DNA of 64,000 bases from a virus: the IMG/VR virus record IMGVR_UViG_3300045988_131485; one strand, written 5' to 3'. Under the pieces are notes generated by a model. It saw nothing but the letters and a program-made list of their open reading frames with translations. It ran no database searches and had not been told where the DNA came from. Positions 9,895 through 56,438 of the stretch are shown here, piece after piece; the stretch's first letter is position 1, and every line of letters begins with the position of its first letter. The translations under genes and the position numbers were made by a program.

Positions 9895-9910
9895 ATTTTC
9901 TTGTTTGCTA
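9895..9910 (-). repeat. junction motif copy in inverse orientation (TAGCAAACAAGAAAAT)
   Basis: Read on the minus strand. Ends 1 nt before the -35 at 9911. Confidence 0.45.
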
Positions 9911-9939
9911 TTGACAATCTCACCTACGTATGGTAAGAT
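9911..9939 (+). promoter_or_regulatory. sigma-A-type promoter
   Basis: TTGACA (9911-9916), 17-nt spacer, TAAGAT (9934-9939). The junction motif TAGCAACATAGAAAAT begins at the end of the -10. Confidence 0.6.
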
Positions 9940-9954
9940 AGCAACATAGAAAAT
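9939..9954 (+). repeat. junction motif copy (TAGCAACATAGAAAAT)
   Basis: Abuts the -10 of the promoter at 9911-9939. Confidence 0.55.
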
Positions 9955-9980
9955 GATTTGAACGGATTGGAGAGGGGAAT

Positions 9981-10898
9981 ATGATCCGTAACAAATTCTT
10001 TGAAGACCCGGACGGCGGCTATGCTAAGGTAGGCGTCAAGAAAAACTTTGATATCGCCTGGAAAAAGGTTCTGGCCTATGAAGAGCAGACAGGCCAATCG
10101 CTGGACAATGGCTTTACTAAGGAACAGTATGTGTCCATGTTCAACTCCATGAGGGTTCGTCACACCAGCATTTTCTTCAACTATAAAAGCCATGTGATGA
10201 GCTATGTGCGATATCTGATTGCCAATGGCGTGCTGCCGGCAGAACAGGAAAGCATTTTGGCCTCCGTCACTGTGGACGACCTGAAAATCAACGAGACCAG
10301 CGGAGTGCAATACTACAAGAACTTGGGTATGCTCCACCAGGCAATCCAGGATTCCATCAAAGTGTCCGAGTGCTACGATGAAACCTTGTTTGACCTGCCC
10401 GCTGTAATTCTTTTCCTGGCTTGGTTTGGATTGACCGAAGAGCAGATCATCAATTTCCCCAAGGAAGATGTGCTTGATGACGGCGTGATGATAAACGGTG
10501 AGAAGACCGAGATGCCGTTTGAAATCTTGCAGATATTCAAGCGTCTGAGGGATGCAGAGGGATACTACCAGCAGGCCAGAGGCGTAATCTTCCGTGCCTA
10601 TGTCTATTCAGATAACCTGATTCGGACGGAGCGGAACAGCAAGATCAACGTCTCTAAGATGCAGGGTCTGGTAAATCGTCTGAATACCCTGATGGACGGT
10701 GCCTACTCGCTACGGTACAACGTAATACACCAGTCCGGTATATTCTACCGTGCTCATCTGCTGGAATGCGAGAGTACCCAGTTCAATCTGGAAGACCCGG
10801 AGTTTGCGTCTAAGGTGTTTTGCGAGGATCTGTCCAGCAAGGTCAAGCACACAGCCCGGATCAGAGACTACAAGCTCTACAAGCAACTATTCTACTAA
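9981..10898 (+). CDS. hypothetical protein (305 aa)
   Basis: ATG after GGAGAGGGG RBS. No confident family call. Confidence 0.6.
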   Translation: MIRNKFFEDPDGGYAKVGVKKNFDIAWKKVLAYEEQTGQSLDNGFTKEQYVSMFNSMRVRHTSIFFNYKSHVMSYVRYLIANGVLPAEQESILASVTVDDLKINETSGVQYYKNLGMLHQAIQDSIKVSECYDETLFDLPAVILFLAWFGLTEEQIINFPKEDVLDDGVMINGEKTEMPFEILQIFKRLRDAEGYYQQARGVIFRAYVYSDNLIRTERNSKINVSKMQGLVNRLNTLMDGAYSLRYNVIHQSGIFYRAHLLECESTQFNLEDPEFASKVFCEDLSSKVKHTARIRDYKLYKQLFY

Positions 10899-10924
10899 AT
10901 GGCTTCGGCCATTTAGTTCTTGGA

Positions 10925-10940
10925 TAGCAACAAAGAAAAT
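10925..10940 (+). repeat. junction motif copy (TAGCAACAAAGAAAAT)
   Basis: Followed by TATTCTG..GAGGAG and ATG 10965. Confidence 0.6.
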
Positions 10941-10964
10941 TATTCTGTAAGAGGAGTGAAAGCA

Positions 10965-53833: not shown

Positions 53834-54148
53834 ATGTCCCATATTTATGAGAATGATACGAAGCCCATTCTGAGCGACCCTCCGTATCTGTTGCAATTCA
53901 TTTTGTCCGTGGTGCTGTCTGTGCTCTGTGGAGCGACCATCATGTTCATGTGGAACTGGTTCGTTGTCCCGCTCGGGCTTCCCATGATTGGCCTGGTACA
54001 AGCGCTGGGGCTTGATACGCTCATCACATTCATTGTGACCACCAGAGTCAATACCCCCCCCGATCCATTCTGGGATCGTTGGATCACTGCTATCACCTAT
54101 GCGCTTCTCACATTGTTCGTCGGGTGGCTGCTCCATTTCTTCATGTGA
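53834..54148 (+). CDS. small membrane protein (104 aa)
   Basis: Three hydrophobic segments. Contains an in-frame C8 tract (TPPD). Confidence 0.55.
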   Translation: MSHIYENDTKPILSDPPYLLQFILSVVLSVLCGATIMFMWNWFVVPLGLPMIGLVQALGLDTLITFIVTTRVNTPPDPFWDRWITAITYALLTLFVGWLLHFFM

Positions 54149-54165
54149 CCCAGGAGGATGTCATA

Positions 54166-55131
54166 ATGGATACACAAATGGTATTGACCCACACGGGTAA
54201 AATCTACTTCAACCGATCGCTCGGTTTGGAGTTTCTTACCGTGGGTGACTACGGCAAAGAAAACAACATCAAAGCCGATTTCCTCGGCTTAACCAAAAAG
54301 ATTGAGGGCGTTCAGCACCACGACGTTGACCTTATGGACAAGTGGGTTGCGACTATCAGCAGCCAGAAGGGATGTCCCATGAAGTGTACCTTCTGCGATG
54401 TTCATAAATACGGTTTCTTCGGAAATGCCTCTCTGCCTGATCTCGAATATCAGATCCGCTACATTATTGAACATGAGGATGTCCGTTTTACCAACCGTTT
54501 CAATGTCCACTACGCTCGCATGGGTGAGCCGACTTGGAATCCTGCAGTGCTGGATTTTACCGAGTCCCGATTGGACGACCTGGTTAAAGAGTGTGGTCTT
54601 CACGCTGTCACCATCCATCCCGTAGTTTCCACCATGATGCCTCGTAGCAATAACGACCTCTCCAGCTATTTGAAGCACTGGTGCGAAATCAAGAATACCC
54701 AGCGGCATGGTGAAGCTGGACTGCAACTTAGTATCAACAGCACTTCAGACGACCAGCGGGAAGCTCAGTTCGCCGGCAAATCTCTGAGCCTGAGAGAAAT
54801 CGCTAATATCGCCAGCGATTTGCCTATGCCGGTTGGCAGAAAGTACACGTTGAACTTTGCTGTAACCGAAGCAACGATTTTGGACGCCAAAGTGCTCGAC
54901 TCCCTCTTTGACCGCGATAAGTTTATCGTCAAGATTACCCCGATCCACCAAACCAAAGCCGCTCTGGAACACAACTACGATATCACTACCAGCTACGACG
55001 ATTATAGCGTCTACGACAAATTCGAGCAGCCCTTACTTGATTTGGGCTGGGACGTAATCGTGTTTGTTCCCAGCAAGGAAGAAGATTCCGACCGCATTAC
55101 CTGCGGCAACGCTCTTATTAGCGAGGTATAA
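54166..55131 (+). CDS. radical SAM enzyme, RlmN/Cfr-like
   Basis: SSQKGCPMKCTFCDV (CxxxCxxC) and ARMGEPTWN resemble RlmN blocks (SSQVGC..C.FC, MGMGEPL.N). ATG lies after CAGGAGG. Confidence 0.6.
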   Translation: MDTQMVLTHTGKIYFNRSLGLEFLTVGDYGKENNIKADFLGLTKKIEGVQHHDVDLMDKWVATISSQKGCPMKCTFCDVHKYGFFGNASLPDLEYQIRYIIEHEDVRFTNRFNVHYARMGEPTWNPAVLDFTESRLDDLVKECGLHAVTIHPVVSTMMPRSNNDLSSYLKHWCEIKNTQRHGEAGLQLSINSTSDDQREAQFAGKSLSLREIANIASDLPMPVGRKYTLNFAVTEATILDAKVLDSLFDRDKFIVKITPIHQTKAALEHNYDITTSYDDYSVYDKFEQPLLDLGWDVIVFVPSKEEDSDRITCGNALISEV

Positions 55132-55135
55132 CACA

Positions 55136-55969
55136 ATGACTGAACAAGAAAAACTAATCAATGTTGATCTGTATGGTGACGGTAGCCGCGACTCGCGGCT
55201 TCGCGCAGAGTACATTTATTGCGATCATGCCGATGTGTGCTCGGTATACAAGGAAGGAAAATGCTTCCGTAAAACGACACTATTTGGCGTTCGTTGTGAA
55301 TTTGGCCGCATAGCCTGTGTTGATGGCGGCACAAAGAAAACCAAGATGTACGGTCGTGTTTATAGCGAGGCCAAAGACTCTGAGCGATACCATAAGCTCT
55401 CTTACCCCAACAACACCTACATCGCAAAAATCGGCGACGGTGCTTTTCTCGCGCCGCCCTATGTCAGAATCGAACGCGGCCCGGATTCCAGGCTATTCTG
55501 TCATAATCCTGGGTTCGGTTGCAATCGTCTCTTTGTCTCTATTGACGAGCTGACGCCAGACAATATCAATCGAATTTGCACCTACCATCCGCGTGCTATG
55601 CTTGGTGGAGAGATTGAGAGCTATCAAACAGAAACCATCCCGATCTTTCTCCACCAGTTGTCCAAATTATTCCCAGAGCAGTATAGCGCTTTCATCAAGG
55701 CGTTCCCAGATTATGAGCTGAAAGCTCCTGATTACCGTGGGAAATATGCGAAGCTGTCAACCTGCAATCGTGAGCTGATCTATCGTGACGCTCATGGCAA
55801 CTCTTTCCGTTTTGACGGCGATGAGTTGGTATGTGACAAGTATCGGATTGGTGGGTTCATGCCGTTCTCATCCTCTGGTTACGCACAAATGCGTATTCCG
55901 GTAACAGATGATATGCAGGTAAAAATCACCGATAGCAACCAAGTCACGGATCAAACCGTTCTTATATAG
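55136..55969 (+). CDS. hypothetical protein (277 aa)
   Basis: ATG 2 nt after the upstream stop. No motif recognised. Confidence 0.55.
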   Translation: MTEQEKLINVDLYGDGSRDSRLRAEYIYCDHADVCSVYKEGKCFRKTTLFGVRCEFGRIACVDGGTKKTKMYGRVYSEAKDSERYHKLSYPNNTYIAKIGDGAFLAPPYVRIERGPDSRLFCHNPGFGCNRLFVSIDELTPDNINRICTYHPRAMLGGEIESYQTETIPIFLHQLSKLFPEQYSAFIKAFPDYELKAPDYRGKYAKLSTCNRELIYRDAHGNSFRFDGDELVCDKYRIGGFMPFSSSGYAQMRIPVTDDMQVKITDSNQVTDQTVLI

Positions 55970-55993
55970 GCACAAATTATGAGGTGAAATAAA

Positions 55994-56422
55994 ATGAATA
56001 CAGAAGTCATGTTCTCGTCCAGGGCTATGGACTGGGCGACGCCGCAGGCGTTCTTTGACCAACTGGATTCGGAGTTTCACTTCACCCTCGATCCCTGCGC
56101 TGATAAGTCCAATCACAAGTGCGACCGGTACTTTACCGTAGCAGACGACGGACTGAGACAGCCGTGGGGGGGGCAGACGGTCTTCTGCAATCCACCGTAT
56201 GGCAGGGCTATCAAAGACTGGGTGAAGAAATGCTCCGAAGAGGCCAAGCAGCCTGACACCACCGTGGTACTGCTTATCCCGGCCCGTACAGACACAGCCT
56301 ACTTTCACGATTACATCTATCAGAAACCCAATGTGGAAGTTCGCTTCATACGTGGCCGGCTGAAATTTGGAGACGGAAAGAACTCCGCACCATTCCCCAG
56401 TATGGTAGTCATTTTCCGTTAA
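55994..56422 (+). CDS. dam: phage Dam-type N6-adenine DNA methyltransferase
   Basis: DWATPQAFFDQLDSEFHFTLDPCA and FCNPPYG. Contains an in-frame G8 tract (PWGGQ). Confidence 0.85.
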   Translation: MNTEVMFSSRAMDWATPQAFFDQLDSEFHFTLDPCADKSNHKCDRYFTVADDGLRQPWGGQTVFCNPPYGRAIKDWVKKCSEEAKQPDTTVVLLIPARTDTAYFHDYIYQKPNVEVRFIRGRLKFGDGKNSAPFPSMVVIFR

Positions 56423-56438
56423 TAGCAACAAAGTAAAT
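56423..56438 (+). repeat. junction motif copy (TAGCAACAAAGTAAAT)
   Basis: Begins immediately after the TAA stop of dam and is followed by the RBS and ATG 56457. Confidence 0.6.

Follow-up and report, generated by a model that had tools for sequence, protein, structure and literature searches.

A dispersed 21-nt motif is a candidate operator of an SPβ-type, integrase-fold repressor in a large phage genome

The window analyzed here, a 64,000-nt stretch of viral DNA (IMG/VR record IMGVR_UViG_3300045988_131485), carries a recurrent 21-nt motif that is probably the asymmetric operator of an SPβ-type master repressor encoded by the gene at 9981-10898. The carrier is a large prophage of gut Oscillospiraceae, in which the motif, scattered over the early genes, would serve to silence them. 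The motif statistics, promoter geometry, protein fold, lineage variants and genomic distribution were observed directly, and from them we infer physical binding, repression and roadblock action by the YopR-like protein. Of the four roles that the original prediction had offered for this motif, regulator binding is the one favored by the evidence, and its interpretation as a whole is partly supported.

All 14 copies of the 16-nt motif listed in that prediction were present, but the conserved block proved longer than 16 nt, namely 21 nt (W-TAGCARCAAAGWAAAT-Y-A-W-T), with an invariant A in the 21-mer copies at position 18 of the earlier numbering. TAGCARCAAAGWAAAT was exact in seven of the 14 copies (0 expected, 100 shuffles) and had one or two mismatches in the other seven; when up to three mismatches were allowed, 19 matches were found against 1.9 expected. 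Scanning with a PWM derived from the 14 copies gave a bimodal distribution in which 14 sites scored 24.5-33.2 bits and the background stayed near 12 bits; a single borderline site, at 58686 (19 bits), overlapped a start codon. The 21-mer is non-palindromic and its 3′ half is A/T-rich. A motif so far above chance, 21 nt long and without a palindrome, is consistent with an operator. The copies in the window (class 2), as scored by the PWM, are as follows.

9891..9911, − strand: inverted copy abutting the −35 of promoter P9911 (ATAGCAAACAAGAAAATTATT), 26.5 bits; the inverted-copy-at-the-−35 layout is kept in all repressor lineages
9938..9958, + strand: overlapping the −10 and start site of P9911, 27.4 bits
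10924..10944, + strand: after the repressor-gene terminator hairpin, 32.9 bits; followed 3′ by cTGTAAG (a class-1-like block B) and then the RBS; orthologues carry lineage-specific centers
14418..14438, + strand: overlapping the stop of a DUF2828/DUF7788 gene; orthologues in L171, L177, L178 and L179
15671..15691, + strand: in the gap separating the cysteine desulfurase gene from the one that follows; orthologues at L171 16678 and L179 12074
26495..26515, + strand: between two methyltransferase genes, in a segment replaced in relative L103
27052..27072, + strand: overlapping the −35 of P27071, direct orientation
27142..27162, + strand: 42 nt after the −10 of P27071, immediately preceding the RBS of a C5-methyltransferase gene
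28762..28782, + strand: inside ORF 28119-28967, in a fragmented/permuted C5-methyltransferase region; kept in relatives L059, L103 and L113
34707..34727, + strand: solitary, containing the stop of an HD-domain gene, 10 nt upstream of the Sak SSAP gene
43207..43227, + strand: solitary, between cell-wall hydrolase and ThyX genes
51657..51677, + strand: its end lies 9 nt before the −35 of P51687
51722..51742, + strand: begins 6 nt downstream of the −10 of P51687, close to the transcription start
56422..56442, + strand: solitary, after the Dam gene; directly 3′ of the preceding gene in relatives without Dam

As predicted, 13 of the 14 copies lie on the + strand. The minus-strand copy at 9895 has no leftward gene after it and abuts the −35 of the promoter at 9911, and the + strand ORF upstream of it (9398-9859) is a called, conserved gene in relatives. 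The proposed placement between a stop codon and the next RBS was observed at 10 of the 60 + strand junctions in the 9.4-57.4 kb interval; at these, the 21-mer overlaps or adjoins the stop of the preceding gene, and the following gene starts 10-24 nt beyond the motif. It did not hold at several copies: the next element is a promoter at 27053, 51658 and 9895 and a hairpin at 14419, and the copy at 28763 is read through as coding sequence inside ORF 28119-28967. Stop codons in all three frames characterize only two of the 14 copies (15672 and 43208). The suggested link to the tRNA-insert core was not supported either: TAACAGCAA matches at seven of nine positions over the first nine bases only, the PWM gives the core sites less than 12 bits, and the three occurrences of the 9-mer were reached in two of 100 shuffles.

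Three copies bracket the gene whose product we propose as the motif binder.

9981..10898, + strand: 305-aa YopR/MrpR/SroF-like integrase-fold protein (AF2 and Foldseek)

This product had no Pfam, PHROG or PDB sequence match. When its AF2 model, obtained with an alignment (pLDDT 94), was searched with Foldseek, the best matches were YopR (8bj6), MrpR (8a0a) and SroF (9rgl and 9rd5, the latter DNA-bound), with E values of about 1e-6 to 1e-7, ranking above true recombinases. The TM-scores were only 0.46-0.52 (two-domain hinge) and the identity to YopR was 13-14%, low values that count against the operator reading. In every homologue the box-I arginine is missing and its position is occupied by GL[T/S/D]. 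MrpR binds the SPBRE repeat at about 10 intergenic promoter regions (PMC10516654), and SroF occupies many dispersed sites as a monomer, reading out 24 bp of each asymmetric 26-bp box (bioRxiv 10.1101/2025.11.27.690993). Both this precedent and the bracketing of a gene modeled as YopR/MrpR/SroF-like argue for an operator.

A recombinase-fold protein encoded nearby would also suit the earlier suggestion of a recombination junction that shuffles cassettes in a PeSL-like way; such a junction might be a hotspot of homologous recombination or a target of that protein, and the shuffling might also be integron-like. One copy does lie within the fragmented methyltransferase region, and of about 15 indels between 93-99% identical relatives, two terminate at a copy on one side (the Dam gene, 55977-56422, and a replacement, 22207-26525). 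However, nearly all of these indels lie at gene boundaries, which their junctions simply track; none is bracketed by two copies and the inserted segments contain none. Moreover, the 21-mer lacks the paired inverted arrangement of a core site, no homologue has the box-I arginine, and the closest structures are non-catalytic repressors. Cassette shuffling is thus largely refuted by the breakpoint analysis, and we consider a recombination junction of any kind barely credible.

The three TTGACA-17-TAnnAT promoters noted previously were confirmed; the original prediction had missed that each has a copy directly upstream of its −35.

9911..9939, + strand: sigma-A-type promoter P9911, TTGACA-17-TAAGAT, driving the YopR-like gene
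27071..27099, + strand: sigma-A-type promoter P27071, TTGACT-17-TAGAAT
51687..51715, + strand: sigma-A-type promoter P51687, TTGACA-17-TATACT

P9911 is kept in lineages down to 41% protein identity. At each of the five strong intergenic sigma-A promoters of the lytic regions, in 90 kb of contiguous genome, a copy ends −2 to +9 nt from the −35, in direct orientation at three promoters and inverted at two; four of the five have a second copy −2 to +42 nt after the −10. This adjacency to every strong lytic promoter, in either orientation, supports the operator reading. Ahead of the inverted copies lies the 3′ end of a convergent gene, indicating that they are neither gene promoters nor sense-RNA elements. 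An unstructured RNA element directly preceding the Shine-Dalgarno sequence, acting in processing, stability or the enhancement of translation, is very unlikely, even though 10 junctions have the motif in sense orientation directly upstream of the RBS, it is A/C-rich like known enhancers, and it stands at the 5′ end of the P9911 and P51687 transcripts. Copies that are inverted and upstream of promoters are not in the sense transcript; others lie 5′ of tRNA genes or between them; no common RNA structure was predicted at the copies (z-scores −0.7 to +1.3), and the motif matched no Rfam family.

The 21-mer is related to a second class of element, bipartite and promoter-like (class 1; ggTTAGCAAa-N14-cTGTAAATATAGTG), whose first block it shares (TTAGCAA).

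917..951, + strand: class-1 element (TTAGCAAATAGTAGTTTCATCctgaaaatgtagtgg), with the TTAGCAA block in common with the 21-mer
4994..5028, + strand: class-1 element (TTAGCAATCCCCCTTTTCTTTctgtaatagaagtgagg)

It is the class-1 elements, rather than the 21-mer, that resemble the PeSL cassettes of T4-type phages, having a conserved promoter-like sequence and a stem-loop terminator before a small ORF in a variable early region. Apart from the two indel ends above, breakpoints between relatives miss the 21-mer copies, which thus do not behave as mobile cassette boundaries. Copies occur in the spacer of class-1 elements, just upstream of them or just downstream, as operators might. The common TTAGCAA block nevertheless hints at recognition by the transcription machinery, and a positive regulator or sigma-appropriation factor (T4 MotA-like) could read it; alternatively, the A/T-rich 3′ half could act as an UP-like element boosting adjacent promoters, and sigma-A and class-1 promoters do have copies close upstream of their −35. 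We regard such a factor or element as improbable: the spacing to the −35 (−2 to +9 nt) and the orientation vary in a way unusual for activators, many copies are found at +1, beyond it or far from any promoter, and no MotA-like or sigma domain was detected in the window by Pfam.

Comparison of lineages bears on the same question. At orthologous sites the motif center varies in concert (AAAG, TCAT, ACAT, AAAT and TAGAG..ATACATAG), whereas class 1 is constant in the lineages where it was seen, a difference that favors an operator over a factor reading both classes. Divergent lineages keep the architecture with an altered center, and the copy sandwich at the repressor gene's own promoter persists down to 46% identity. 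Concerted variation would, however, fit RNAP-promoter co-evolution or homogenization among copies equally well.

The prediction that the motif might be the promoter of an unseen phage RNA polymerase stays alive as the main rival, because a gene for a two-barrel RNAP-like protein exists outside the window, although we judge it rather unlikely. The 940-aa protein, encoded 22 kb to the left, has the RxP...h motif and the DFDSD aspartate triad and aligns with phrog_8308 along its entire length (E 3e-106); homologues in Enterocloster phages are annotated as RNA-dependent RNA polymerase. Such a single-subunit (YonO/QDE-1-like) enzyme would initiate near the invariant 3′ A, producing very short leaders that start just before the Shine-Dalgarno sequence, and, for the middle genes and tRNAs, would succeed transcription from the adjoining host sigma-A promoters. 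Like the T7, T3 and SP6 promoters, the 21-mer is a contiguous, asymmetric block of about 20 bp in tight intergenic gaps; all but two inverted copies point with the local genes, the RBS follows 0-12 nt after a copy, copies also stand 5′ of tRNA genes, and some come after intrinsic terminators, where transcription would have to re-initiate. The lineage-specific centers resemble T7/T3 promoter specificity changes, and the promoter sequence of YonO is not yet known (PMC5467207), so that no direct comparison can be made. This strict placement 5′ of the Shine-Dalgarno sequence, the sense orientation, the invariant 3′ purine and the polymerase gene itself all weigh against an operator. By contrast, the inverted copies at three independent promoters face convergent-gene 3′ ends with no gene downstream, and an independent promoter has no reason to adjoin a sigma-A −35, as copies do at five of five lytic promoters with variable spacing and either orientation. 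Tandem copies 35-126 nt apart around a host-type promoter, with which the 21-mer is obligatorily paired, would be redundant. YonO transcribes late genes (PMC5467207), whereas the 11 kb examined of the late module (terminase/portal) contained no copy, an absence that likewise favors the operator reading. Finally, motif divergence did not follow RNAP divergence monotonically: at 80.5% RNAP identity a lineage had the most different motif, changed at many positions, and one at 73% differed at only 3-4. Motif type was matched to repressor or RNAP lineage across different contigs, a point against the operator reading. This failure of the motif to track the polymerase again favors the operator reading.

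The YopR-like gene adjoins a first-tier switch.

8185-8781, − strand: ImmA-like M78 peptidase
8833-9219, − strand: XRE HTH repressor
9250-9267 and 9314-9331: two palindromic operators, (T)CACGAA-N6-TTCGTGA, flanking promoter P9275
9398..9859, + strand: 153-aa gene, with the XRE-controlled promoter on one side and the YopR-like gene on the other

The palindromes are presumably the XRE repressor sites, distinct from the 21-mer; having its own operators at P9275, XRE is not the binder of the 21-mer. The pair, 600 bp away, has the same sandwich geometry as the motif copies, which further supports an operator role for the latter. A called gene of 151-194 aa occupies the position of 9398-9859 in every lineage. 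Its product, which matched no family, is speculatively a candidate antirepressor.

Taken together, the repressor would have a tyrosine-recombinase fold but no catalytic activity, and a single monomer would clamp each long asymmetric box. In the lysogen it would sit on copies flanking or overlapping the strong sigma-A-type promoters that serve the tRNA array and the early and middle genes, where a first copy lies at the −35 and a second at +1 or beyond, and on copies inside or next to the bipartite class-1 promoters. Autoregulation would depend on the two copies at its own promoter, which are weaker and deviant. At least 23 copies occur across 90 kb of contiguous genome, and about a third (~8 of 23) are solitary, between co-directional genes, with no recognizable promoter nearby; when occupied, these could plausibly act as polar, stoperator-like roadblocks to read-through. 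All reported SPBRE sites are promoter-proximal, and the solitary copies thus count against the operator reading. The XRE/ImmA switch upstream would control the conserved 153-aa gene, whose product could, more speculatively, relieve repression.

Stoperators of the cluster A mycobacteriophages (L5 gp71, Bxb1) are reportedly asymmetric, monomer-bound sites in 20-35 copies, mostly in short intergenic gaps overlapping stops or starts and oriented with transcription, with one site at the early promoter −35 and a second about 100 bp downstream, and their variants are said to define immunity groups. The 21-mer would be comparable in these respects, but the stoperator repressor is said to have two fused HTH domains instead of an integrase fold, its sites to be 13-14 bp instead of 21 bp, and structural-gene regions to be populated, unlike the late module examined here.

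The closest system is SPβ/phi3T with MrpR (YopR, SroF): as proposed here, a large temperate Firmicute phage with a YonO-type polymerase gene, whose Pfam-invisible tyrosine-recombinase-fold repressor (about 305-325 aa) reads long, non-palindromic boxes that are dispersed over distant intergenic and promoter regions of early genes and precede its own gene. The stress-sensing layer upstream is LexA-Sar in SPβ and XRE/ImmA with the conserved small gene here. The protein sequences show no detectable similarity (13-14% identity), nor do the boxes (phi3T CAGTAATTTTATTTTTATTCTTAATG versus ATAGCAACAAAGWAAATYAWT); the host belongs to the Clostridia (Oscillospiraceae) rather than Bacillus, no arbitrium genes were recognized, the copies number at least 23 in 90 kb instead of about 10, a third of them away from promoters, and the box has a block in common with a second promoter-like class. 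A dispersed-operator strategy with an integrase-shaped repressor, previously described only for the Bacillus phage SPβ and its relatives, would thus probably also operate in this prophage of gut Oscillospiraceae.

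The exact 16-mer TAGCARCAAAGWAAAT occurs 7 times in the window, where 0 occurrences are expected by chance, and all 14 positions listed in the original prediction match it with no more than two mismatches. Alignment of the copies showed that the conserved block is 21 nt long, W-TAGCARCAAAGWAAAT-Y-A-W-T, with an invariant A located 3 bases past the end of the 16-mer and no dyad symmetry across the 21 conserved positions; the 21-mer is long, asymmetric and non-palindromic. The scores of a PWM scan of the window were cleanly bimodal: 14 sites lie at 24.5–33 bits and the noise lies at ~12 bits, a level also attained by shuffled sequence, with a single borderline site, at 58686, in between. 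The borderline sequence (AGAGCAACAAAGCAATTCAAT, 58686–58706, 19 bits) extends across the start codon of the ORF at 58683–58886 and is kept in relatives; a role as coding sequence is more probable for it than one as a functional copy. By walking outward from the window we assembled 90 kb of contiguous genome containing 23 copies, of which 21 are co-oriented with the genes and 2 are inverted, further inverted copies being present in relatives. The recurrence of the motif is thereby confirmed and extended.

We counted 60 plus-strand gene junctions between 9.4 and 57.4 kb. The 50 motif-free junctions have a median gap of 1.5 nt, whereas at the 10 motif-bearing junctions the gap holds approximately the 21-mer and a Shine-Dalgarno sequence only: the upstream stop codon overlaps or abuts the 21-mer, and the next start codon lies 10–24 nt beyond it. 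The gene-boundary placement originally described is thus borne out at these 10 junctions but not at 28763, where the copy lies within a long ORF of a fragmented C5 cytosine methyltransferase region. That region (27178–29163) is divided over at least three ORFs, with an FxGxG motif-I-like segment at the end of the second (~28710–28760), directly 5′ of the embedded 21-mer, and with replacements of ~130–215 bp between relatives at 28323–28539; it may represent a multispecific methyltransferase that is permuted or in decay.

According to Pfam and PHROG annotation, the window is the early/middle part of a temperate phage with the following content:

8.2–9.2 kb, XRE repressor and ImmA-type peptidase
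60.7 kb, tyrosine integrase
Replication genes: DnaE, primase-helicase, SSB, Sak and PD-(D/E)XK nuclease
Further content: nucleotide and NAD metabolism genes, many DNA methyltransferases and an ABC transporter

Pfam revealed neither an RNA polymerase nor a sigma domain in the window. Use of the motif as a query retrieved a family of contigs, 93–99% identical, from human-gut viromes, and Dysosmobacter segnis BX15 and Hominicoprocola fusiformis carry the same prophage (98–99% identity); these prophages are ~125 kb long and their hosts are cultured human-gut Oscillospiraceae. A megablast search of GenBank phages with 20 kb found no relative. The 90-kb genome includes a 23-tRNA array and a divergent control region ~12 kb left of the window, and the terminase/portal (late) module, which sits further left, contains no copy of the 21-mer in the 11 kb examined. 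The sequence to the right of the window belongs to another, related element, which is inverted and has an integrase of its own; the reading of the 125-kb IMG/VR contigs as circularly permuted genomes was rejected on this ground. Beyond 64000 (L162, a relative's contig, 1–9500), a second integrase, of the Tn916 type, precedes another set of cell-wall hydrolase, ThyX, dNMP kinase, NT5C, NrdD and NrdG genes, which is divergent and inverted; the related element is inserted tail-to-tail beside this prophage.

Several other gene clusters of the window were recorded. A NAD salvage cluster (22219–25874; isochorismatase/nicotinamidase-like, PRPP-synthetase-like, NAMPT-like and NAD synthase genes) is missing in L106 and replaced by a small lipoprotein gene in L103, both 96–99% identical relatives, and resembles, by analogy, phage NAD-reconstitution counter-defence cassettes. 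Alongside the 23-tRNA array, an RNA-repair theme appears at 13050–18964, 36537–36998 and 52966–53820, with genes for a DUF2828/DUF7788 (TROVE-like) protein, a cysteine desulfurase, a kinase (AAA_33) and HD-domain protein, the HAD domain of 'Swiss Army Knife' RNA-repair proteins and a Thg1-like tRNA-His guanylyltransferase. The phage early region also carries a complete ABC transporter (29679–34041; permease, ATPase and NMT1/OmpA-domain binding protein) plus a PspA/IM30-like gene.

The motif had also been proposed to mediate cassette shuffling. Of ~15 distinct indels relative to close relatives, only 2 touch a copy; no indel has a copy at both ends, and the inserted segments are free of the motif. 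The indel junctions lie almost always at gene boundaries, give or take a few bases; since about one junction in six carries a copy, copies are not enriched at the breakpoints. The Dam gene (55977–56422) is an insertion upstream of a copy that remains with the downstream gene, and in L103 copy 26496 was lost along with the replaced segment. Unlike in a PeSL or cassette junction, therefore, gain and loss breakpoints do not coincide with the 21-mer.

The suggested connection with the inserts of tRNA-like genes was likewise not supported. The three tRNA-like genes concerned, 117–124 nt long, are as follows:

12218–12338, minus strand, tRNA-like gene
12478–12594, minus strand, tRNA-like gene
12863–12986, minus strand, tRNA-like gene

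They score as tRNA in Rfam and received no ARAGORN call. Each contains an insert of ~45 nt after the anticodon-stem region, with a common core cgCT(A/T)ACAGC(A/T)A that is repeated in the relatives L241 and L244 and adjoins tRNA T-arm-like sequence in the latter; from their sequence, the inserts may be tRNA introns. This segment (11934–13082) is arranged differently in L013 (IMGVR_UViG_3300045988_141938), the alignment changing strand between 11934 and 12423–13082, which suggests an inversion or rearrangement. An action of the 21-mer at the RNA level is unlikely, considering that copies lie before and between tRNA genes, that some are outside the sense transcript, and that the motif has no predicted structure and no Rfam family match.

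Five strong, intergenic, gene-co-oriented TTGACA-17-TAnnAT promoters were located in the lytic regions, negative positions being left of the window:

−25142, strong promoter
−13318, strong promoter
9911, strong promoter
27071, strong promoter
51687, strong promoter

At all five, a copy ends −2 to +9 nt from the −35 box, and at four an additional copy is found −2 to +42 nt after the −10 box; a weaker, sixth promoter has the same layout. In total, 11–12 of the 23 copies are at these six sigma-A-type promoters, and others are in or beside the class-1 elements, bipartite promoter-like relatives of the 21-mer. The copy upstream of the −35 box is direct at three of the strong promoters and inverted at two. 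Because the inverted copies abut a −35 box and point towards the 3′ end of a convergently transcribed gene that is called and conserved in relatives, they are neither gene promoters nor sense-RNA elements.

No copy of the 21-mer accompanies the promoters in the immunity and integrase modules. One of them, P9275, which lies beside the XRE gene, is flanked by two perfect palindromes, (T)CACGAA-N6-TTCGTGA, located between the XRE gene and a 153-aa gene:

9250–9267, palindrome on one side of P9275
9314–9331, palindrome on the other side of P9275

Such sites are what one would expect for operators bound by a dimeric XRE protein; their paired arrangement is classical, and they are distinct from the 21-mer. 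We consequently rejected the XRE protein (8833–9219) as the 21-mer binder; the palindromes also show that genuine operators in this phage have the sandwich arrangement.

Another candidate binder is encoded by a gene at 9981–10898 (305 aa), which has the 9895/9939 pair on one side and the 10925 copy on the other. Its product has no match in Pfam, PHROG or PDB, either by sequence or, for PDB, by profile search, but belongs to a deep family of homologues with identities down to 41%. An AF2 model built with the alignment reached a pLDDT of 94 and a pTM of 0.87, whereas the model from the single sequence (pLDDT 37) was unusable. The top six Foldseek matches in PDB were to YopR (8bj6, 8bpz), MrpR (8a0a) and phi3T SroF (9rgl; DNA-bound, 9rd5), with E values of 3.5e-7 to 1.7e-6, a probability of 1.0 and TM scores of 0.46–0.52; lambda integrase, XerA and Cre ranked below them. 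The model thus has the tyrosine-recombinase fold, with CB and CAT domains, of an SPbeta-type repressor. The segment that we equate with box I, by motif resemblance and not by superposition, reads AW[YF]GL[T/S/D]E in 38 of 38 aligned homologues, so that, given this mapping, the first catalytic arginine would be absent; the putative Arg II column, in a box II placed by motif resemblance only, varies among homologues. By analogy, a dispersed, asymmetric box of 21 nt is what a MrpR/SroF-like protein would be expected to recognise.

Lineages were also compared. A module consisting of an SOS-type repressor, a ~150-aa gene and the YopR-like gene, followed by the DUF2828/DUF7788 and cysteine desulfurase genes, is present in all of them. 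Down to 46% identity, each lineage has a TTGACA-17-TAnnAT promoter in front of the YopR-like gene, with an inverted copy fused to the −35 box (...TTGCTA|TTGACA) and a second copy beginning at the end of the −10 box; this pair at the repressor gene's own promoter is kept in all lineages. The complete 176-kb relative MT835469 (31% GC) has no YopR-like gene and no repeated motif of either class. At orthologous junctions, the centre of the dispersed copies differs between lineages in concert.

Dispersed element in each lineage; percentages are repressor identity to the window
Window and 68–84% lineages: TAGCAAC-AAAG-WAAAT
L171 (63%): TAGCAAC-TCAT-TAAAT
L244 (52%): TAGAGMC-AAAA-ATACATAG
L245 (51%): TAGCAAC-ACAT-TAAAT
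L246 (46%): TAGCAAM-AAAT-TAAAT

A recognition sequence that evolves together with a partner specific to each lineage would be expected to change in this way, as in immunity specificities. The 153-aa gene (9398–9859) matches no family and always lies between the SOS-type switch, which is XRE/ImmA or, in L173, a LexA-like S24 repressor, and the YopR-like gene; it could encode an antirepressor, a suggestion made purely on the model of Sar in phi3T.

The concerted variation is equally compatible with a promoter read by a phage RNA polymerase, and, as for the promoters of single-subunit phage polymerases, a candidate cognate gene is present in this phage, outside the window. It encodes a 940-aa protein (L009:6294–9113, contig IMGVR_UViG_3300045988_141355, ~22 kb left of the window) with no match in Pfam or, by sequence or profile, in PDB, but with a full-length match to phrog_8308 and homologues in Enterocloster phages annotated as RNA-dependent RNA polymerase. 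Its ...SRSPHVTMGNV...SGADFDSDT... segments, which include the motif RxP...h and the aspartate triad DFDSD, resemble the catalytic loop of two-barrel RNA polymerases, and it is probably a YonO/QDE-1-like single-subunit enzyme. YonO of SPbeta, an enzyme of this kind, transcribes the late operon from a single start site, and no sequence has been defined for its promoter (PMC5467207). Being contiguous, sense-oriented and just 5′ of each RBS, the 21-mer could be the promoter of such a polymerase. This explanation, the main alternative to an operator role, is nevertheless unlikely, considering the inverted copies, the obligatory attachment of copies to host-type promoters and the lack of copies across 11 kb of terminase/portal genes. 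Moreover, the most divergent motif occurs in a lineage with an 80.5% identical polymerase and a mild variant in a 73% lineage, a comparison that is only suggestive because the genes were sampled on different contigs.

The class-1 elements have the block TTAGCAA in common with the 21-mer. In the divergent relatives L150/L151 (61% identity in a neighbouring gene) they form a regular array in the order terminator hairpin, ggTTAGCAAa, variable spacer of ~14 nt, cTGTAAATATAGTG and RBS. In the window phage they precede ~14 small genes between −9 kb and +5 kb, for example:

917–951, class-1 element
4994–5028, class-1 element

They are also present in L147 (1–10000), L150, L151 and L172, usually directly 3′ of an intrinsic-terminator hairpin and sometimes with TTAGCAA within the hairpin loop. 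The 21-mer is fixed where the class-1 spacer varies and usually lacks the second block. The two are combined in several ways: the 21-mer sequence serves as the class-1 spacer at L147 2938 and, partly, at window 10925 and 28763; it lies 15 nt downstream of a class-1 element at L147 696/746; and it ends 6 nt upstream of one at L246 5170 and L247 5155. The class-1 blocks are identical in the lineages examined (L150/L151, L172). Their sequence looks like that of a phage-specific promoter class with PeSL-like organisation, and none of the consensus sequences considered for both element classes (sigma-A, sigma-54, SPO1 gp28/gp34, T4 MotA-box, AR9 late promoter) fits the spacing. TTAGCAA might conceivably be a promoter determinant read by the phage transcription machinery, possibly the YonO-like polymerase, and the lineage-specific centre by the integrase-fold repressor, both competing at ~23 sites; we regard this dual use as somewhat more doubtful still than a polymerase promoter. 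If true, it would provide the first sequence-defined promoter of a YonO-type polymerase and a new repression logic.

We conclude, with moderate confidence, that the most probable explanation of the 21-mers is an SPbeta-like operator network, to which an integrase-fold repressor is predicted to bind. In SPbeta, the master repressor MrpR/YopR occupies the SPBRE repeat at ~10 intergenic promoter regions, as detected by ChAP-seq (PMC10516654). The SroF monomer reads 24 of the 26 bp of an asymmetric box, has many sites genome-wide, is released by an SOS-controlled antirepressor and was reported as the first phage repressor of integrase fold (bioRxiv 10.1101/2025.11.27.690993); the SPbeta-type repressor operon was reported to occur in arbitrium phages only (PMC8612738). 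Common to these systems and ours are a long, asymmetric, non-palindromic box (15–26 bp; here 21 nt) and its dispersal over distant early promoter regions, the repressor's own promoter included (here 23 in 90 kb). By contrast, the box is unrelated to that of phi3T (10.1101/2025.11.27.690993), the 305-aa protein has no sequence or profile match to the YopR/SroF entries of PDB, and its neighbours are XRE, M78 peptidase and the 153-aa ORF instead of the yopM-R layout; neither arbitrium genes (aimR/aimP) nor an sroA-F operon was recognised in the annotation. The copies are also more numerous, the host clade is different, and the first tier is XRE/ImmA. Neither solitary stoperator-like copies at gene junctions nor a block in common with a second promoter-like class has been reported for SPbeta. 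The stoperators of cluster A mycobacteriophages are similarly asymmetric, multi-copy and transcription-oriented sites in short intergenic gaps, accompanied by early-promoter operators, but they are bound by a gp71-type two-HTH monomer, whereas the candidate binder here has an integrase fold, and they also occur in structural-gene regions, whereas no copy of the 21-mer was found in the terminase/portal region examined.

Integrase-fold master repressors with dispersed asymmetric operators are so far described only in SPbeta-like Bacillus phages. If our reading is true, the system would supply regulatory parts for gut anaerobes that are hard to manipulate genetically, and the AAAG, xCAT and TAGAG types would constitute a natural series of repressor/box variants, illustrating how the specificity of a monomeric clamp changes and how immunity groups arise. 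This repression strategy would then be ancient and widespread in Firmicute phages.
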